Shown piece after piece: positions 4,886-63,838 of a DNA stretch of 64,000 bases (positions within the stretch are counted from its first letter, which is position 1; every line of letters starts with the position of its first letter). The notes below the pieces were generated by a model. That model was not told the DNA's origin and searched no databases. It saw nothing but the letters and a program-made list of their open reading frames with translations. A program made the translations under genes and the position numbers. The stretch is from Trueperaceae bacterium (lineage in GTDB: Bacteria > Deinococcota > Deinococci > Deinococcales > Trueperaceae): assembly GCA_965213925.1 (NCBI GenBank), contig OZ243927.1, positions 384,001-448,000 of the forward strand. Direction: 5' to 3'.

Positions 4886-5789
4886 ATGACACAAGTAAGC
4901 CTTGGTGCCGTCCATGCGGCGTAACCCTCTCTCGATTGCAGCGCTGGTCGTCCCAGCGCTGCTCGTCGTTGCGCTAACGACGACCTATCCTCTCATCTCC
5001 GCCTTTCTAACGAGCTTCCGCTTCTGGCGGCTCAACCGCTCGACCGAGCCCGGCGAGTGGGTTGGCTTCGAGAATTACCTCCGCGCATTTGAGGATGGGG
5101 CGTTCTTAAACAGCATGAGTGTGACCCTCATCTACACGCTCATCTCGGTGGGCTTCTCGCTCGGGTTAGGCTTAGCGTTCGCGCTCCTCTTACAGCGCGA
5201 AAACCGCATCAACACTGCGATTCGCGTGCTCCTCATCTTCCCCTACGCGGTGAGCCCCGCCCTCAAAGGCTTCTCCTGGCGCTTCATGCTCAACCCGAAC
5301 TACGGCGTGTATGACTGGGCGGTAGGCACACTTTTTCCCTTCTTGGACGGTATCATCTGGCTCGCCCAGCCCTTCTGGGCGCTCTTTTGGATGGCGATGT
5401 CGGAGGTGTGGGGTTGGGCTCCTCTTATCGCGCTTATGTTCATCGGCGCACTCGGCTCGATCTCTGAAAACCTCTACGAGGCGGCTCGCATCGACGGCGC
5501 GAACCGTTTGCAAATCTTTCGCTCGATCACCTTGCCGCTGCTCTTGCCCGTTATCTTGATCGTCGCGCTGCTAAAAACGATCTTCTCCCTAAAGCTCTTT
5601 GCTCAGGTCGTCACCATGACGGGCGGCGGTCCGGGTCGCGCCACGCAGACACTCAACTATTATGTCTATCAGAACGCCTTTCGCAACCTCGATATGGGCT
5701 ACGCCTCGGCGCTCGCCTGGATTCTAGTGGTTGTCATGTCTATTTTCGCGTTCGCCTACGTCTATCTCGTCTTACAGCGGCAGAACTGA
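4886..5789 (+). CDS. Carbohydrate ABC transporter permease (likely start 4886 with apparent +1 artefact at 4901-4904)
   Basis: EAARIDGA EAA loop and TM helices. The RBS-preceded ATG at 4886 joins the ORF only if CTTG is read as one Leu codon. Confidence 0.85.
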
Positions 5790-59102: not shown

Positions 59103-59438
59103 ATGAATAGACCTATCGACAATCCTCCCAACTTAAACCACTTTCGGGGCACTCGGCGCAGCATCCTGACGCTCGTCTGCGGCGTCGCAATCGGCTTCGC
59201 GGCGAGTTCCGACACCCCTCTTCTCTTAGGCGTCGCCTGGCTCTTCGCCGCGTTCGCCTATGCTGAAAAAAGCTACCTCGATGAGCAGTACTCGAGGGCT
59301 ATCATGCTGTGGACGTTCGGCGTGGCTGGCTTAGCAGGGACGCTCCTTGTGCAGCAGCAATATCTGGCGGGAGCCGTACTTGGCGCGTTAGCAGCGGGCT
59401 ACGCGGTGCAGGCGTGGTGGGCTAGGGCACGGGCTTAG
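59103..59438 (+). CDS. Small membrane protein
   Basis: About four hydrophobic segments; ATG at 59103. Confidence 0.55.
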   Translation: MNRPIDNPPNLNHFRGTRRSILTLVCGVAIGFAASSDTPLLLGVAWLFAAFAYAEKSYLDEQYSRAIMLWTFGVAGLAGTLLVQQQYLAGAVLGALAAGYAVQAWWARARA

Positions 59439-59485
59439 CTCGAGCTTCACAATACGACGCTCAATCTTAATGAAGATTGTGGTGC

Positions 59486-59514
59486 TTGACACCTTATGTG
59501 AGGTTTGCTACACT
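59486..59514 (+). promoter_or_regulatory. Sigma70 promoter of the Y RNA/tRNA-rsr-rtcB transcript
   Basis: TTGACA-17 nt-TACACT with extended -10 TG. The expected start near 59521 is 2 nt before the first Y RNA. Confidence 0.85.
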
Positions 59515-59522
59515 TCTAATTC

Positions 59523-59590
59523 GCGGACCGAAGAGACTTCGTTACCTGACTTTCCCTCAGACCTAACCCGAAGTCTCACCACTCGTCCGC
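59523..59590 (+). ncRNA. Y RNA 1 (minimal, no tRNA domain)
   Basis: GCGGAC-C-GA pairs with UC-GUCCGC (bulged C); AGACUUCG/CGAAGUCU upper stem; GUUACC motif; pyrimidine-rich loop. Confidence 0.75.
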
Positions 59591-59640
59591 TAATTTCCAA
59601 GAAAGGGAGACACTCACCGCTTTGTGAGGTCGTGGACGCT

Positions 59641-59772
59641 ATGAATAAACATTTTATACAACCCGAACACGGCTCCATCCTGAGCGCCGAGCCCACCTGG
59701 TTTTTCCAGCGTGCCACCTGGTTTTTCCAGCGTGCCACCTGGTTTTTCCAGCGTGATAGTCGGCGAGCGTAA
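59641..59772 (+). CDS. Candidate 43-aa leader peptide with (TWFFQR)x3
   Basis: ATG with GAGGT ~10 nt upstream; contains three 21-bp in-frame repeats. Confidence 0.35.
   Translation: MNKHFIQPEHGSILSAEPTWFFQRATWFFQRATWFFQRDSRRA
59693..59755 (+). repeat. Three perfect tandem 21-bp repeats
   Basis: CCACCTGGTTTTTCCAGCGTG at 59693, 59714 and 59735. Confidence 0.95.
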
Positions 59773-59851
59773 GGATATTAAGGTGAGTTGGACCCCTCGA
59801 ATATTTTTAACCCCCAAAAACTGAATAGTACTCACCTTAATTTGGAGCTAT

Positions 59852-59988
59852 AGACGGGCCGAAGACGTTTCGTTATCTGGATCATCGTGTTGCGGGTTCG
59901 AATCCCGTCTAGCGTCAGCTAGTAGCTCAAACGGTTAGAGCATATGATGGAGCCTAGCTCCTACCGAAATGTCGTCTCTTGCCCGTTT
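59852..59988 (+). ncRNA. Y RNA 2, classical YrlA topology
   Basis: Ro stem ACGGGC-C-GA/UUGCCCGU; GUUAUC; T arm GCGGG-UUCGAAU-CCCGU; closed acceptor CUAGC/GCUAG; D arm GCUC/GAGC; AUCAU/AUGAU connector. Confidence 0.85.
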
Positions 59989-60054
59989 TCAAAGAAGAGT
60001 TGTCCGCAAGGGCTAACTCACAGGTCTTTATACCCCTCTGAGGCTATTCGCTCT

Positions 60055-60144
60055 GATGGACTGACGCAGTTTGGTTATCTGGATTCACAAGTTCGACTCT
60101 TGACCTAGCGCAAGCTAGCATCCAAACTACGTTCCTTGTCCATC
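60055..60144 (+). ncRNA. Y RNA 3 (T arm plus closed acceptor, no D arm; bulged U)
   Basis: GAUGGAC-U-GA/UUGUCCAUC; GUUAUC; CAAG-UUCGACU-CUUG; CUAGC-GCAA-GCUAG. Confidence 0.75.
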
Positions 60145-60156
60145 TCTACTAGACCT

Positions 60157-60232
60157 GGTGCCATCGTCTAGCGGTCTAGGACTCGAGCCTTTCACGTTCG
60201 CAACAGGGGTTCAAATCCCCTTGGCATCACCA
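60157..60232 (+). tRNA. tRNA-Glu (UUC)
   Basis: Full cloverleaf GGTGCCA/TGGCATC, anticodon loop CT-TTC-AC, T loop TTCAAAT, encoded ACCA. Confidence 0.92.
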
Positions 60233-60243
60233 ACCTAATTTAC

Positions 60244-60414
60244 GATGTGGGCCGAAGCGTGTCCGTTATCGACTTCTAATCGGCAGGTCGCGGGTTCGAC
60301 TCCCGCCCAGCACCCCCAACATGGTGCTGGTAGCTCAGTGGCAGAGCAGCTCGAGCACCACTTGGTTTGGTAGAACCCCAGTGCTCGTTCGGACATTCAC
60401 CCCTTGCCTACATC
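60244..60414 (+). ncRNA. Y RNA 4, permuted tRNA domain with Arg (UCU) anticodon loop
   Basis: GAUGUGGGC-C-GA/UUGCCUACAUC; UCGA-CUUCUAA-UCGG; T arm; CCAGCACC/GGUGCUGG acceptor; D arm. Confidence 0.85.
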
Positions 60415-60419
60415 TTTTC

Positions 60420-60493
60420 AGCGCCATCGTCTAACGGCAAGATTCCTGGTTCTTACCCAGGGGATGAAGGTTCAAATCCTTCTGGCGCTACCA
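60420..60493 (+). tRNA. tRNA with CUU (Lys) anticodon and Glu-like body
   Basis: AGCGCCA/TGGCGCT acceptor, CCTGG-TTCTTAC-CCAGG anticodon arm, 4-nt variable region, encoded ACCA. Confidence 0.88.
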
Positions 60494-60494
60494 C

Positions 60495-60622
60495 AACTAA
60501 GCCGAAGGGCGTTCGTTATCGGTCAGAGCCCCTGAAAAGGGAGGACGCTGGTTCAACTCCAGCCTAGCCGCAAGGCTCAGTAGCTCAGGGAAACAACGCG
60601 AATGTCCACCCCTTGCCTAGTT
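60495..60622 (+). ncRNA. Y RNA 5, permuted tRNA domain with Phe (GAA) anticodon loop
   Basis: AACUAAGC-C-GA/UUGCCUAGUU; GUUAUC; CCC-CUGAAAA-GGG; GCUGG-UUCAACU-CCAGC; AGCC-GCAA-GGCU; UAGCUCAG. Confidence 0.8.
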
Positions 60623-60635
60623 TTATCTCTATCAT

Positions 60636-60783
60636 AGGCGAGCCGATTGGGTTCCGTTATCAGCCTGTCACGCTGGCGGTGCAGGTTCGATTCCTGCCTA
60701 GCCCTCGGGTCAGTCGTCTAAACGGTTAGGACACCAAGTCGGAAGCGATTCCGACATACCGAAGCCCGCCCACTTGCTCGCTT
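60636..60783 (+). ncRNA. Y RNA 6, permuted tRNA domain with Asp (GUC) anticodon loop
   Basis: AGGCGAGC-C-GA/UUGCUCGCUU; GUUAUC; CAGC-CUGUCAC-GCUG; GCAGG-UUCGAUU-CCUGC; D arm GUCU...GGAC; extra GCGA-tetraloop hairpin. Confidence 0.85.
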
Positions 60784-60970
60784 TATCTTACGCGGATAGG
60801 TCGCTGAGTTCTTCTCAAATCCTTTCACCTGTCTGCTTTATCGACGCAAGCTCCAGCTCTTCTGAGCTTGTATCACGCAGATATCATCCCTGAACGTGCG
60901 TGCTAGAGATTGCTTCTTCGGCTGAGCGCGTTTGTGACCAGATGCTACCTGCTTGAAGGAGGTGCTCGAA

Positions 60971-62563
60971 ATGCAAAAGTTCCACAAGCTCTTCTCACCC
61001 ACTAAAACGGCGCAAAACCGCCCGCTGGATAAATCGCAAATCAAGAACAGTGCGGGCGGATACGTCTGGGCGCTGGACCCGTGGAAGAGACTCGAGCGCT
61101 TCCTCATCTTGGGGACGGAGGGCGGCACGTTTTACGTCCGCGAAGCGCCCCTTACAGTGGAGAACGCCGAAAACGTCGTTAAGCTCCTCACAGAAGACGG
61201 CGTCCGTGTCGTCAACCGAGTTGCGGAGGTCAGCATGCAAGGTCGCGCTCACAAGAATGACCCAGCGCTCTTCGTCCTGGCGCTCGCATTCACGGTAGGT
61301 GACGTGGACACAAAGCGTGCAGCGGAAGCGGCGCTGCCTAAGGTCGCGCGTACTGGCACGCACCTCTTCACCTTCATGACCTACGTGAGCGAGATGCGCG
61401 GCTGGGGTCGTGTGCTGCGCCGTGCGGTAGCGGGTTGGTACGCGAGCAAAGATGTATCGGCGCTCGCTTATGGAGTCACTAAGTACGCCCAGCGCGGCGG
61501 CTGGACGCACCGCGACGCCCTACGTTTGGCGCACCCTAAGACGAATGACGCCGAGCGCGACGCGCTGTACCGTTACGTTACGGGGCATAGCGACAAGTTG
61601 AAGGAGGTGAGCGGCGAATGGGTTGACTACTTAAAGGCAGTCGAAGCGGTAAAGGTCGAAACGAACGTGCAAGCGGTCGTGGACGCCATCACGCGCTATA
61701 ACCTGCCGAGAGAGGTCATCCCTACCGAAATGCTTCGCAACAGTCAAGTCTGGGCGGCACTCCTAGCGCGTATGCCTATGACCGCGACGATTCGCAACCT
61801 CGCGACGATGACGCGCGTCGGCTTGCTGACACCTATGAGTGAAGCGTCAGAGGTCATCGCGGAACGCATCAAGAACGAAAAGGCGCTCCGCAAGGCTCGC
61901 GTCCACCCCATCGCCATCCTCGCCGCGCTGATGACCTACAGCGCAGGGCGCGGCGCAAGAGGTAAGGGTGTGTGGGAACCCGTGCAAGAGGTCGTGAACG
62001 CACTCGACACTGCGTTTTACCGCGCGTTCGAGAACGTCGTGCCGACGAACAAGCGCATCCTCATGGGGCTGGACGTATCCGGCTCGATGACCTGGGGTGA
62101 GGTGGGCGGCGTCCCTGGACTCACGCCCCGCGTCGCAAGTGCGGCACTCGCACTCGTCACGGCTTGGGCGGAGCCCAAGCACACGTTCATGGCGTTCTCG
62201 CACGAACTCGTGCCGGTCAAGATTTCGCCGCGTCAACGGCTGGACGACGTGGTGAAGCGCCTGGACGCTCTACCCTTCGGCGGGACGGACACCTCGCTGC
62301 CGATGCGTTACGCGGCGCAAAAGGGACTCGAGGTTGACGCCTTCGTCGTCCTGACCGACAACGAGACTTGGTACGGCAAGCAGCACCCCGCCGAAGCGTT
62401 GCGCGAGTACCGCCGCAAGACGGGTATCCCCGCCAAGCTCATCGTGGTCGGGATGCTCGGCAACCGCTTCACGATTGCGGACCCAAACGACGCTGGCATG
62501 TTAGATGTGGTCGGGTTCAGCACGGATACGCCGACGGTTATCGCGGATTTCATTCGCGAGTGA
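60971..62563 (+). CDS. rsr: Ro60-related TROVE domain RNA-binding protein
   Basis: NSAGGY, RFLILGTEGGTFY, VARTGTHLF, KY.QR.GWTHRD, vWA MIDAS DVSGSM, TDNETW; RBS AAGGAGG. Confidence 0.95.
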   Translation: MQKFHKLFSPTKTAQNRPLDKSQIKNSAGGYVWALDPWKRLERFLILGTEGGTFYVREAPLTVENAENVVKLLTEDGVRVVNRVAEVSMQGRAHKNDPALFVLALAFTVGDVDTKRAAEAALPKVARTGTHLFTFMTYVSEMRGWGRVLRRAVAGWYASKDVSALAYGVTKYAQRGGWTHRDALRLAHPKTNDAERDALYRYVTGHSDKLKEVSGEWVDYLKAVEAVKVETNVQAVVDAITRYNLPREVIPTEMLRNSQVWAALLARMPMTATIRNLATMTRVGLLTPMSEASEVIAERIKNEKALRKARVHPIAILAALMTYSAGRGARGKGVWEPVQEVVNALDTAFYRAFENVVPTNKRILMGLDVSGSMTWGEVGGVPGLTPRVASAALALVTAWAEPKHTFMAFSHELVPVKISPRQRLDDVVKRLDALPFGGTDTSLPMRYAAQKGLEVDAFVVLTDNETWYGKQHPAEALREYRRKTGIPAKLIVVGMLGNRFTIADPNDAGMLDVVGFSTDTPTVIADFIRE

Positions 62564-62620: not shown

Positions 62621-63838
62621 ATGGAATTGACGAAAAACATTTTCGGTCAACACGATGAAAAGACCTTGAAGCAGCTCGAGGACGTAGCGACGAGGGCTGA
62701 TAGAGTCGCCCTCATGTCAGACGGACACTTGGGCTACGTGATGCCCATCGGCGGCGTTGCTGCTTATGACAATAAAGTATCTGTCGCAGGCGTCGGCTTC
62801 GATATTGCGTGCGGGAACGCAGCCATCAAGACGAACTTGACCTTGGAACAACTCGAGCCCAACCTCACCACCCTCGCTGACGAAATCGCCGAGATCATCT
62901 CGTTTGGCGTTGGACGCAAAAACACCTCGGACGACGCGCCTGTGAATGACCCGCTCTTTGAGGACGCCGCTTGGGAAGTTGTCCCCACCAAAAAGGGCGT
63001 GCGCCAGCGTCTTTTAGACAAAGCGCGTAACCAGCTTGGCACGGTGGGCTCGGGCAATCACTACGTGGACGTCTTCGCGGACGAGAAGGGCGTGATTTGG
63101 GTCGGGGTGCATTTTGGCTCTCGCGGTTTCGGTCACACCGTCGCCTCCACCTTCATGGCGCTCCATCAGGGCGGCAAGTGGGGCGATAAGGGTAAGGAGA
63201 GCGAGGCACTTCTCAGCTTAGACGACGAGTTGGGCAAGGACTACTGGGCACTCATGACGCTCGCGGGGCGCTACGCCTACGTCGGGCGCGAGTGGGTCGC
63301 GCGTAAAGTCGTGGAGATTTTTGGGGGGACAGAGCAGGAACTCGTCCACAACCACCACAACTACGCCTGGAAAGAGGTGCATGACGGGCGTGAACTCGTC
63401 GTCGTGCGTAAAGGGGCGACGCCCGCTTTCCCTAGTCAAAAAGGCTTCGTCGGCGGCAGCATGGGCGACAACGCCGTCATTTTACAAGGTCGTGCGGATG
63501 CGGACGACGCAACCAAAGAACAACAAGCGTCAGCGCTCTACTCCACCGTTCACGGCGCAGGTCGCGTGATGAGCCGCACGCAGGCGGCGGGTAAGTGGGA
63601 CTATAAGCGCAAAGTCCGCAAGACTGAGGGGCTAATTTCAACAGAGATGATGCACGATTGGCTCGCCGAGAAAGGGGTCATCTTGCGCGGCGGCGGCTTG
63701 GACGAAGCGCCGCAGGCGTACCGCAGGTTGCCGGGCGTGTTGGCGTCGCAAGGCGCAACGGTTGAGGTCTTGCATACGCTCACGCCGCTTATCGTGGTGA
63801 TGGCAGGGGCGAACGAGTTTGATCCGTATAAGGATTGA
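62621..63838 (+). CDS. rtcB: RtcB family RNA ligase
   Basis: DGHLGY, GFDIACGN, GSGNHY, HFGSRG, HNHHN, HGAGR. Confidence 0.95.
   Translation: MELTKNIFGQHDEKTLKQLEDVATRADRVALMSDGHLGYVMPIGGVAAYDNKVSVAGVGFDIACGNAAIKTNLTLEQLEPNLTTLADEIAEIISFGVGRKNTSDDAPVNDPLFEDAAWEVVPTKKGVRQRLLDKARNQLGTVGSGNHYVDVFADEKGVIWVGVHFGSRGFGHTVASTFMALHQGGKWGDKGKESEALLSLDDELGKDYWALMTLAGRYAYVGREWVARKVVEIFGGTEQELVHNHHNYAWKEVHDGRELVVVRKGATPAFPSQKGFVGGSMGDNAVILQGRADADDATKEQQASALYSTVHGAGRVMSRTQAAGKWDYKRKVRKTEGLISTEMMHDWLAEKGVILRGGGLDEAPQAYRRLPGVLASQGATVEVLHTLTPLIVVMAGANEFDPYKD

Follow-up and report, generated by a model that had tools for sequence, protein, structure and literature searches.

Y RNA 4, a bacterial Y RNA encoded in contig OZ243927.1 of a Trueperaceae bacterium (assembly GCA_965213925.1), was analyzed in this study. 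The stretch of DNA under analysis, hereafter the window, covers 64,000 nucleotides (positions 384,001 to 448,000 of the contig), and all positions are counted from its first letter. The middle part of Y RNA 4 is a circularly permuted mimic of a tRNA, and the loop of its acceptor-like helix reads as a tRNA 3′ end with CCA joined to a tRNA 5′ end. This loop may be a pre-tRNA-like processing junction kept by selection.

The Y RNA array upstream of rsr and rtcB

Six Y RNA-like units (A to F) and two tRNA genes form an array on the + strand, directly upstream of rsr, the gene of the Ro60 orthologue, and of rtcB. The rsr gene (60971–62563, + strand, 530 aa) was recognized by its matches to Pfam TROVE (E 2.1e-44) and vWA_Ro60 (E 4.3e-63). 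The RNA ligase gene rtcB (62621–63838, + strand, 405 aa) matched Pfam RtcB with E 1e-67. A sigma-70-like promoter on the + strand at 59486–59514 (TTGACA, 17 nt, TACACT, with TG ahead of the −10 element; 10 of 12 matches) lies directly 5′ of the first Y RNA unit. It was the sole promoter-like site within 59300–61100, and no terminator-like site was found in the same interval. The promoter is likely the start of a polycistronic transcript of Y RNAs, tRNAs, and rsr-rtcB.

All units of the array are on the + strand. Unit A (59523–59590; array motif 59528–59546; fold z-score −4.9) is a short stem-loop without a tRNA-like module. Unit B (59855–59985) is a full YrlA-like RNA, which matched all 114 positions of the Rfam YrlA model RF02553 (model positions 1–114) with 38.9 bits and E 1.3e-6. 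Unit C (60058–60141, boundaries approximate) is diverged; by sequence and fold it has a hairpin resembling a T arm and a stem of 5 bp closed by 4 nt, and it lacks a D arm. Next comes tRNA-Glu(UUC) with an encoded CCA (60157–60232; ARAGORN; Rfam tRNA, 56.4 bits), whose 3′ end lies 14 nt before the start of Y RNA 4, the fourth unit (unit D, 60246–60412). The second tRNA gene, tRNA-Lys(CUU), also encodes CCA (60420–60493; ARAGORN and Rfam tRNA) and begins 8 nt past Y RNA 4. The YrlA-like unit E (60495–60622; array motif 60502–60520; fold) follows straight on from the CCA of tRNA-Lys. Unit F (60637–60778; array motif 60643–60661) is YrlA-like as well, with 23.9 bits for Rfam YrlA at 60680–60732.

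The unit motif, CCGA-N7-10-SGTTAYC, had five matches in the 1.2-kb array and one elsewhere, against 0.54 expected over the whole window. At Rfam gathering thresholds the window contained the two tRNAs only, and the YrlA matches given here come from the E-value mode. A perfect 21-nt tandem repeat of 3.0 copies (59693–59755) lies between units A and B, inside the array transcript.

The earlier note, made on this DNA from its letters, held that the units other than Y RNA 4 close their acceptor-like stems with short loops, and this was the case. Their helices are of 5–6 bp and their loops of 3–4 nt: unit B has 5 bp and a 4-nt loop in the fold, unit C likewise has a 4-nt loop, the stem of unit E is bulged, with 6 bp closed by 4 nt, and unit F, judged by eye, has 6 of 7 pairs and a 3-nt loop. 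Y RNA 4 was the only unit of the array that combined a full-length acceptor helix with an enlarged loop.

Y RNA 4 as a permuted tRNA mimic

YrlAs were described by Chen et al. 2014 (RNA 20:1715; PMC4201824) as tRNA mimics with T, acceptor-like, D, and ‘V’ stem-loops. The extent of Y RNA 4 on the + strand (60246–60412) was taken from the minimum free energy (MFE) fold, the helix coordinates, and the array motif at 60252–60270. Its 5′ and 3′ ends pair in a terminal helix (60246–60252 with 60406–60412) and a second helix (60259–60265 with 60390–60396). Near the 5′ end and inside this stem, as in other YrlAs, lies GCCGAAG (60251–60257, + strand), which in sequence fits the Rsr/Ro60-contact motif GNCGAAN0-1G proposed by Chen et al. 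2014. Y RNA 4 would bind Rsr/Ro60 through this motif. The RNA ends at 60412, and the rsr ATG follows 559 nt downstream at 60971 on the same strand, well within the 4 kb from Ro60 that is used to recognize YrlAs.

The tRNA-like module begins with the ‘V’ hairpin (60270–60282), which has a 3-bp stem (60270–72 with 60280–82) and the 7-nt loop CTTCTAA. It resembles an anticodon stem-loop, with U33, UCU, and A37. The stretch at 60283–60289 consists of GC (60283–84) and a variable-loop-like AGGTC, with tRNA numbering by inspection. In the Rfam YrlA alignment this GC pairs with GC at 60349–50, a remnant of the anticodon stem, and C60289 is able to form a Levitt pair with G15 (60338). The T arm (60290–60306) has a 5-bp stem and a 7-nt loop (GCGGG / TTCGACT / CCCGC). 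It is followed by the 3′ strand of the acceptor-like helix, CCAGCACC (60307–60314, 8 nt), the loop (60315–60322), and the 5′ strand of the helix, GGTGCTGG (60323–60330). The loop is composed of a discriminator-like C at 60315, CCA at 60316–60318, encoded one nucleotide past the 8-bp helix, and ACAT at 60319–60322 in the place of a trailer or leader. The next segment (60331–60348) holds U8-A9 (TA, 60331–60332), the D arm GCTC / AGTGGCA / GAGC (60333–60347), and A26 (A60348). An extra hairpin at 60352–60387 separates the module from the 3′ strand of the Ro-binding stem. All these parts lie on the + strand. The earlier note had read the series from T arm to D arm in this way, and its reading was correct to the base.

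The two acceptor 8-mers are complementary in 8 of 8 positions by Watson-Crick pairing and adjoin the T arm and U8-A9 just as the acceptor strands of a tRNA do. The MFE fold of 60244–60412 contained the T arm, the 8-bp helix closed by the 8-nt loop, and the D stem; its z-score was −3.1, and none of 200 shuffles was as stable. Inspection located the nucleotides of tRNA tertiary contacts (U8, A14, G15, G18-G19, the T-loop TTCGA, and C48). The order of the module is anticodon-like hairpin, variable loop, T arm, acceptor helix, and D arm. The T-arm-like hairpin thus stands 5′ of the D-arm-like hairpin with the acceptor-like hairpin between them, the arrangement by which YrlAs are known. The Rfam YrlA model matched Y RNA 4 at 60283–60350 (model positions 24–84 of 114) with 39.0 bits and E 1.2e-6. 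The gathering score of 69 bits was not reached, because of the long acceptor loop and the differing Ro-binding stem, and no YrlA match at the gathering threshold was found anywhere in the window. Y RNA 4 is a YrlA-class bacterial Y RNA built around a circularly permuted tRNA mimic. In most YrlAs the acceptor-like stem is short and ends in a tetraloop, while the helix of Y RNA 4 is of full length (7 + 1 bp, all eight paired), beyond the 7 bp of the Mycobacterium smegmatis type.

The acceptor of tRNA-Glu (60157–60163 and 60219–60236) and that of Y RNA 4 (60307–60330) are alike at 5 of 7 positions, and CCA-AC follows the discriminator in both. Gene conversion within the array was considered, and the likeness was judged to be within chance for such short strings.

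Encoded CCA in long-stem Y RNA modules

The occurrence of a discriminator nucleotide followed by CCA (N-CCA) was surveyed by a fixed-rule scan of 35 Rsr loci and the window. Nine loci came from an Rsr protein search of species-level genome contigs and 26 more from records of phages and plasmids; the whole sample is small, and part of it was chosen by hand. The 355 published YrlAs in Table S1 of Chen et al., which are given as coordinates only, were left out of the tally. The scan returned 58 T arms behind a Y RNA 5′ motif, and in 32 of these cases the T arm leads directly into a contiguous helix of 7 bp or more. Four rows (L025 5754, L032 3268, L032 3397, and L033 3268) were dropped because the helix partner was not followed by a D arm. 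The module L014 388, with a T-rich loop and no CCA, was removed by the T-stem filter and would count as one more miss.

N-CCA stood directly after 7 bp or the full helix in 9 of the 28 long-stem modules. The expected count was 1.02 from the pooled loop composition and 1.16 from shuffles of each loop's own letters. The modules with N-CCA were those of the window (C-CCA-ACAT after 8 bp), Gordonia phage Sixama (A-CCA-C), Mycobacterium phage Myrna (A-CCA-CAA), Nonomuraea gerenzanensis (G-CCA-CCA-C), Shinella (C-CCA-ACCAT, a 5-nt trailer on a 7-bp helix), and four Rhizobium plasmids (T-CCA with a 6-nt trailer on a 7-bp helix). The loop of unit D aligned with the N-CCA of the other five kinds and with that of a real tandem-tRNA junction described below. 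The four Rhizobium rows had been fetched after Shinella had been seen, and they were therefore collapsed into its row; phage VanLee was added as a miss. The collapsed tally was 5 of 25 against 1.10 expected (Poisson-binomial P(≥5) = 0.0014), and 4 of 24 without the window (P = 0.006). These loop statistics are sensitive to assumptions.

For unit D by itself, N-CCA at a given register had p ~0.03 from the pooled loop composition. The helix and the geometry of unit D are beyond chance; its CCA taken alone is not significant and is non-random only at the family level. A pre-tRNA-like junction, as read from sequence, recurs in at least five lineages. They fall into four distant groups: the window, Rhizobiaceae, the actinomycete Nonomuraea, and the actinophages Sixama and Myrna.

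The Rhizobium and Shinella YrlAs are encoded at plasmid loci (L028, L031–L034). A BLAST search of plasmids with whole unit D matched the Shinella YrlA at 77.5% over 70 nt. These RNAs share with unit D the T arm, the helix, N-CCA, a trailer ending in AT, the 5′ strand, U8-A9, and the D arm, and the Shinella loop differs from that of unit D by one inserted C. In contrast to unit D, they have a 7-bp helix and a Ro-binding 5′ motif of the CGAATGC type, and their place is 3′ of rsr, in an operon under the control of RtcR. Rhizobiaceae loops showed a constant CCA on a constant 7-bp helix, whereas the discriminator (T or C) and the trailer differed between Rhizobium and Shinella. Rhizobium etli in the alignment of Chen et al. 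2014 has the Rhizobium form of the loop. The last letter of the trailer, right before the 5′ strand, is T in the window, Shinella, and Rhizobium. RNase P favours U at −1.

Some further rows were considered and left uncounted. G-CCA or A-CCA follows the T arm in Stanieria, Calothrix, and Chondromyces (Supplementary text 2 of Chen et al.), and Gloeocapsa has A-TCA; none had convincing pairing partners, and the Chondromyces row looks like real tRNAs. In the Picosynechococcus plasmid L022, G-CCA stands seven nucleotides past the T arm, also without a convincing pairing partner.

Other features of the surveyed loops and hairpins were noted on the way. The acceptor loop of the Nonomuraea gerenzanensis module (L021 2749) is CCACCA. 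Tandem CCACCA is a degradation tag that the CCA-adding enzyme puts on unstable tRNA-like RNAs. Three long-stem acceptor loops of Streptomyces phages (L014 388 and 1481; L017 997) are T-rich, 6–7 nt long, and start with TTT or CTTT. At L014, L017, L018, and L026, the sequence past the 3′ ends of ARAGORN tRNAs often starts with TT, and CCA is encoded in none of 21 calls. In these Streptomyces phages, the loops of the Y RNAs may mimic the kind of pre-tRNA trailer found at the same loci.

A V-type hairpin of 3 bp and 7 nt at a fixed distance from the T arm was found in 25 of 36 Y RNA modules (unit D and, for example, L011 ~805–817, L021 ~2560–2572, and L016 ~2690–2702), 14 at offset 0 and 11 at +1, with 0–5 at other offsets. 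Among the 25 V loops, 22 have T at position 2 and 21 a purine at position 6. The V stems vary among species yet remain paired, often over more than 3 bp. The V loop of unit D, CTTCTAA, is common to the YrlAs of M. smegmatis and Streptosporangium and to Gordonia phage VanLee. The 5′ parts of Y RNAs beside Ro60 genes are annotated as tRNA genes, in phage records and by ARAGORN, at L011 772–850, L016 2665–2731, L036 2475–2546, and L025 5690–5778. The labels are tRNA-Thr(tgt), tRNA-Asn, tRNA-Arg(tct), and tRNA-Leu(gag) overlapping tRNA-Gln, and L012 5497–5585 is called likewise by ARAGORN. These are probably misannotated Y RNAs with the ‘anticodon’ taken from the V loop. In Gordonia phage BlueNGold (L025 4953–5354), a phage transfer-messenger RNA (tmRNA) is annotated between the Ro60 gene and the array of tRNAs and Y RNAs.

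The nearest Rsr in the species-level genome collection, with 68% identity, was a protein of a Trueperaceae metagenome-assembled genome (locus L001). The layout of a promoter followed by Y RNAs at L001 5537–5975 is that of the window at 59486–60800, with TTGACA...TAGACT by eye before the first Y RNA. The full unit of L001 resembles unit B rather than unit D, and its acceptor-like stem also starts with CTAG. From this comparison of sequences, the block of tRNA-Glu, Y RNA 4, and tRNA-Lys looks specific to the lineage of the window. Weak Rfam tRNA scores in unpermuted order were seen over the 5′ portions of three Y RNAs, at 60636–60705 in unit F and at 5562–5636 and 5853–5923 of L001 (25.3, 20.4, and 21.8 bits; E 0.016–0.47). 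These scores fit a Ro-binding strand that descends from a first tRNA, namely its acceptor and D arm.

A proposed processing junction and alternative readings

YrlAs as a kind of RNA, their tRNA mimicry, and their possible origin from dimeric tRNAs are already known, as is, for one species, a YrlA that RNase P cleaves and that has a CCA tail. A fully encoded junction of discriminator, CCA, and trailer on a helix of 7–8 bp appears undescribed in the literature examined, and a search of full-text literature, as far as its texts were available, returned no account of genomically encoded CCA in YrlA acceptor loops.

The closest precedent is the YrlA of M. smegmatis, which has a 7-bp acceptor stem with a 4-nt loop (PMC4201824, Supplementary text 1). 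M1 RNA cuts it in vitro at the predicted site (PMC4201824). In vivo it occurs as halves of 82 nt and 65 nt that co-precipitate with Rsr, and the 5′ half ends in CCA, the CA being gained post-transcriptionally (PMC4201824). Chen et al. credit the 7-bp stem for this cleavage. Like unit D, this RNA is encoded upstream of rsr and has a permuted module, a full-length acceptor-like helix, and the CTTCTAA V loop. The two differ in that unit D has 8 bp, an 8-nt loop, and an N-CCA that is wholly encoded. The M. smegmatis RNA is cut by RNase P, CCA-ended, and bound to Rsr in both halves, all of which is a prediction for unit D.

By analogy with this RNA, a course of processing can be proposed for Y RNA 4. 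A long transcript would carry it together with the five other Y RNAs, the two tRNAs, rsr, and rtcB, and Y RNA 4 would probably be cut out. The CCA of tRNA-Glu lies 14 nt before it and tRNA-Lys begins 8 nt after it, so ordinary tRNA processing would release it. Its paired ends would carry the Ro60/Rsr-binding motif. RNase P is predicted to cut 5′ of G60323, with an 8-bp product and U at −1, or 5′ of G60324, with a 7-bp product. Then 3′ exonucleases would trim ACAT to the encoded CCA, by the same route as for the adjacent tRNA genes; both tRNA genes of the array (2 of 2) encode CCA, so the host would mature precursors of this kind. The product would be an RNA in two pieces, bound by Rsr and with a free CCA end like that of a tRNA; the acceptor helix, the D/T tertiary contacts, and the terminal stem would keep the pieces joined. 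For Y RNA 4 all three events (cleavage, trimming, and binding to Rsr) are inferred. The CCA end may protect the RNA from exonucleases or may be recognized by a tRNA-binding partner.

The loop of unit D was read as a selected, maintained junction because the arms are conserved YrlA arms, because N-CCA stands at the exact tRNA register in distant lineages, and because it is retained among relatives. We hold this reading, the best explanation here, with about even confidence. Several findings weigh against it, and some of them speak for the best of the alternatives, a loop that is never opened and a CCA that is there incidentally. In that case Y RNA 4 would remain uncut and, like the YrlA of Salmonella Typhimurium, serve as a permuted tRNA mimic by which Rsr is tethered to a partner. 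The loop of unit D is simply C-rich, and shuffles of its own letters gave N-CCA at either of two registers in 18% of 5000 cases (p = 0.18). The helix is of 8 bp and not 7; if it is read as 7 bp, the three letters that come next are CCC instead of CCA. Allowing two registers at background composition weakens the P value of the collapsed tally to 0.06. In the survey, N-CCA was missing from 19 of the 28 long-stem modules, which had tetraloops or T-rich loops. Where Sixama has A-CCA-C, its relative BlueNGold has A-CTA-T. In VanLee, whose module matched unit D best among the phages, a 7-bp helix carries a 5-nt loop that lacks CCA. The nine Rsr loci from species-level genome contigs contained no orthologue of unit D. 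L001 has three Y RNA units in an array without tRNA genes, and its long acceptor hairpin lacks CCA.

Published results point the same way. Chen et al. tested three Y RNAs and did not detect cleavage of two, S. Typhimurium YrlA and Deinococcus radiodurans Yrn1 (PMC4201824). Wang et al. 2018 (bioRxiv 10.1101/312249) expect most YrlAs to be poor RNase P substrates, with the closed loop as the general state. The S. Typhimurium RNA resembles unit D in its conserved T and D arms, its tertiary-contact nucleotides, and its Rfam YrlA match. It differs from unit D in its closed 6-bp acceptor stem, in having neither CCA nor an anticodon-like loop, and in the undetected RNase P cleavage. Against a closed loop speak the excess of N-CCA in the family (5 of 25 against 1.1 expected, P ~0.001), the CCA kept between Rhizobium and Shinella, and the position of unit D as the one unit of its array with a full-length helix and an enlarged loop. 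A small loop is also no bar to cutting, as the M. smegmatis YrlA is cut despite its 4-nt loop. A closed loop with an incidental CCA is possible, and we consider it a good deal less likely than a maintained junction.

The earlier note had taken the loop for a fossil junction of tandem tRNA genes, or else for the site at which RNase P and trimming open a two-piece mimic. Neither reading is new, since a dimeric-tRNA origin and the RNase P-cut, CCA-tailed, two-piece YrlA of M. smegmatis have been published. Its first premise, a tRNA 3′ end joined to a tRNA 5′ end, was anatomically right. The plasmid BLAST with whole unit D also matched a genuine junction of tRNA-Ser and tRNA-Lys in a plasmid of Acidiphilium multivorum (L037 2436–2611; 80% over 64 nt). 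This junction, within a cluster of 18 tRNAs, runs as a 7-nt strand, G, CCA, a 5-nt spacer, a 7-nt strand, TA, and the D arm, and from T arm to D arm it has the same series of parts as unit D. In contrast to unit D, its strands come from different tRNAs and are not complementary, and complete tRNAs stand on both sides; the strands of unit D pair in 8 of 8 positions. Dimeric tRNAs score as false YrlA positives (PMC4201824). A tandem tRNA pair has a complete tRNA on each side, and for unit D none was found over 60246–60318 or 60323–60412 with ARAGORN or with the Rfam tRNA model at E up to 10.

As a neutral fossil, Y RNA 4 would be a recent or frozen intermediate in which the 3′ part of a tRNA gene was captured together with the 5′ part of the tandem duplicate, with CCA and spacer as unselected leftovers. 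The order of the parts (the 3′ two-thirds of a tRNA, a 4-nt spacer, the 5′ third of a tRNA), the Acidiphilium junction with its 5-nt spacer, and the tRNA genes flanking unit D are consistent with this. So is the match of its V hairpin, variable loop, and T arm to a real tRNA-Arg(CCT) gene on a plasmid of P. mendocina (89.5% over 38 nt). A permuted join of 60319–60350 and 60270–60322, made by script, also folds as a complete cloverleaf with the anticodon UCU; ARAGORN draws it as tRNA-Arg(tct) with an 8-bp acceptor, C, and CCA. This call is unspecific, because 150 of 168 alternative joins were likewise called tRNA. An origin of this kind is also in print. Wang et al. 2018 (bioRxiv 10.1101/312249) cite the model of Sim & Wolin 2018, in which YrlA arose from dimeric tRNA transcripts and the acceptor-like stem would derive from the spacer. 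Permuted tRNA genes and two-piece tmRNA genes have been modelled in a similar manner, as tandem duplication followed by outer loss (PMC3978253).

The origin from adjacent tRNA genes was thus the part of the fossil claim with published backing, while unit D itself as a fossil or intermediate lacked support. Its T and D arms have the conserved YrlA form and are unlike those of the adjacent tRNA-Glu or tRNA-Lys. The same arms and the V loop shared with M. smegmatis, Streptosporangium, and VanLee place unit D in an old and widespread lineage and therefore not in a recent capture. A neutral CCA is not expected to outlast diverging stems and trailers, as between Rhizobium and Shinella and across phyla. 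Sixama has A-CCA in its Y RNA, whereas only 1 of its 12 ARAGORN tRNA calls ends in CCA. An N-CCA that recurs and is retained points to selection instead of a relic, and a neutral fossil was judged improbable. The data look compatible with the dimeric-tRNA origin of YrlAs and refine it: in the members with this junction, the acceptor-like stem would correspond to two acceptor strands, with CCA and spacer as the loop, and not to the spacer itself.

The third alternative makes Y RNA 4 a true permuted pre-tRNA or a chargeable two-piece tRNA. Its loop would be opened and the RNA aminoacylated, or it would lose the Ro-binding stem and be rejoined at its ends by RtcB into a tRNA-Arg(UCU)-like molecule. 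The module has the full set of four arms, a discriminator, and CCA, though permuted, and the gene of RtcB, a ligase of the tRNA-splicing type, lies 2.2 kb downstream. A likeness of YrlAs to circularly permuted tRNAs has been pointed out, and some are perhaps processed toward likeness to canonical tRNAs (Wang et al. 2018, bioRxiv 10.1101/312249). The permuted tRNA genes of Cyanidioschyzon merolae and Thermofilum pendens and the two-piece tmRNA are like unit D in having the 3′ half upstream of the 5′ half with an acceptor loop between, which is opened by RNase P and 3′ processing (PMC3978253). In T. pendens the permuted tRNA genes encode CCA, one with an intervening sequence of 1 nt (Soma 2014 review, PMC3978253). 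Permuted tRNA genes mature to working tRNAs through a bulge-helix-bulge cut and ligation, however, while the termini of unit D form a Ro60-binding stem, and, according to Wang et al., no bacterial splicing endonuclease has been reported and no bacterial enzyme is known to excise the stem. The anticodon-like stem of Y RNA 4 has three local pairs and two in trans, the cloverleaf-like pairing lies 5.4 kcal/mol above the MFE fold, and the ARAGORN call on the join is unspecific. The two variable letters of the anticodon-like loop, which fall in the ‘anticodon’, differ freely among YrlAs, and position 20 of the D loop is C. Arginine identity requires A20. The suggestion of charging by arginyl-tRNA synthetase in the earlier note was accordingly weak, and a true permuted or chargeable tRNA is very unlikely.

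The same idea can be put for the group, with Y RNA 4, the Rhizobiaceae YrlA, and the Y RNAs of Myrna and Sixama as working split tRNAs that RNase P and 3′ trimming mature and that are Rsr-bound, CCA-ended, equipped with an anticodon-like loop, and perhaps either aminoacylated or rejoined by RtcB. There is a slim chance of this, and if it were true, Ro60 ribonucleoproteins would be linked directly to translation or to the sensing of tRNA damage. Short of that, the recurrence of the junction bears on the family itself. M. smegmatis is so far the one species from which a Y RNA cut by RNase P and tailed with CCA has been reported, and the case was treated as an exception (PMC4201824). If the recurrence holds, two-piece CCA-ended Y RNAs may form a regular subclass and not an oddity, and what reads the CCA end would give a handle on the function of the tRNA-like domain.

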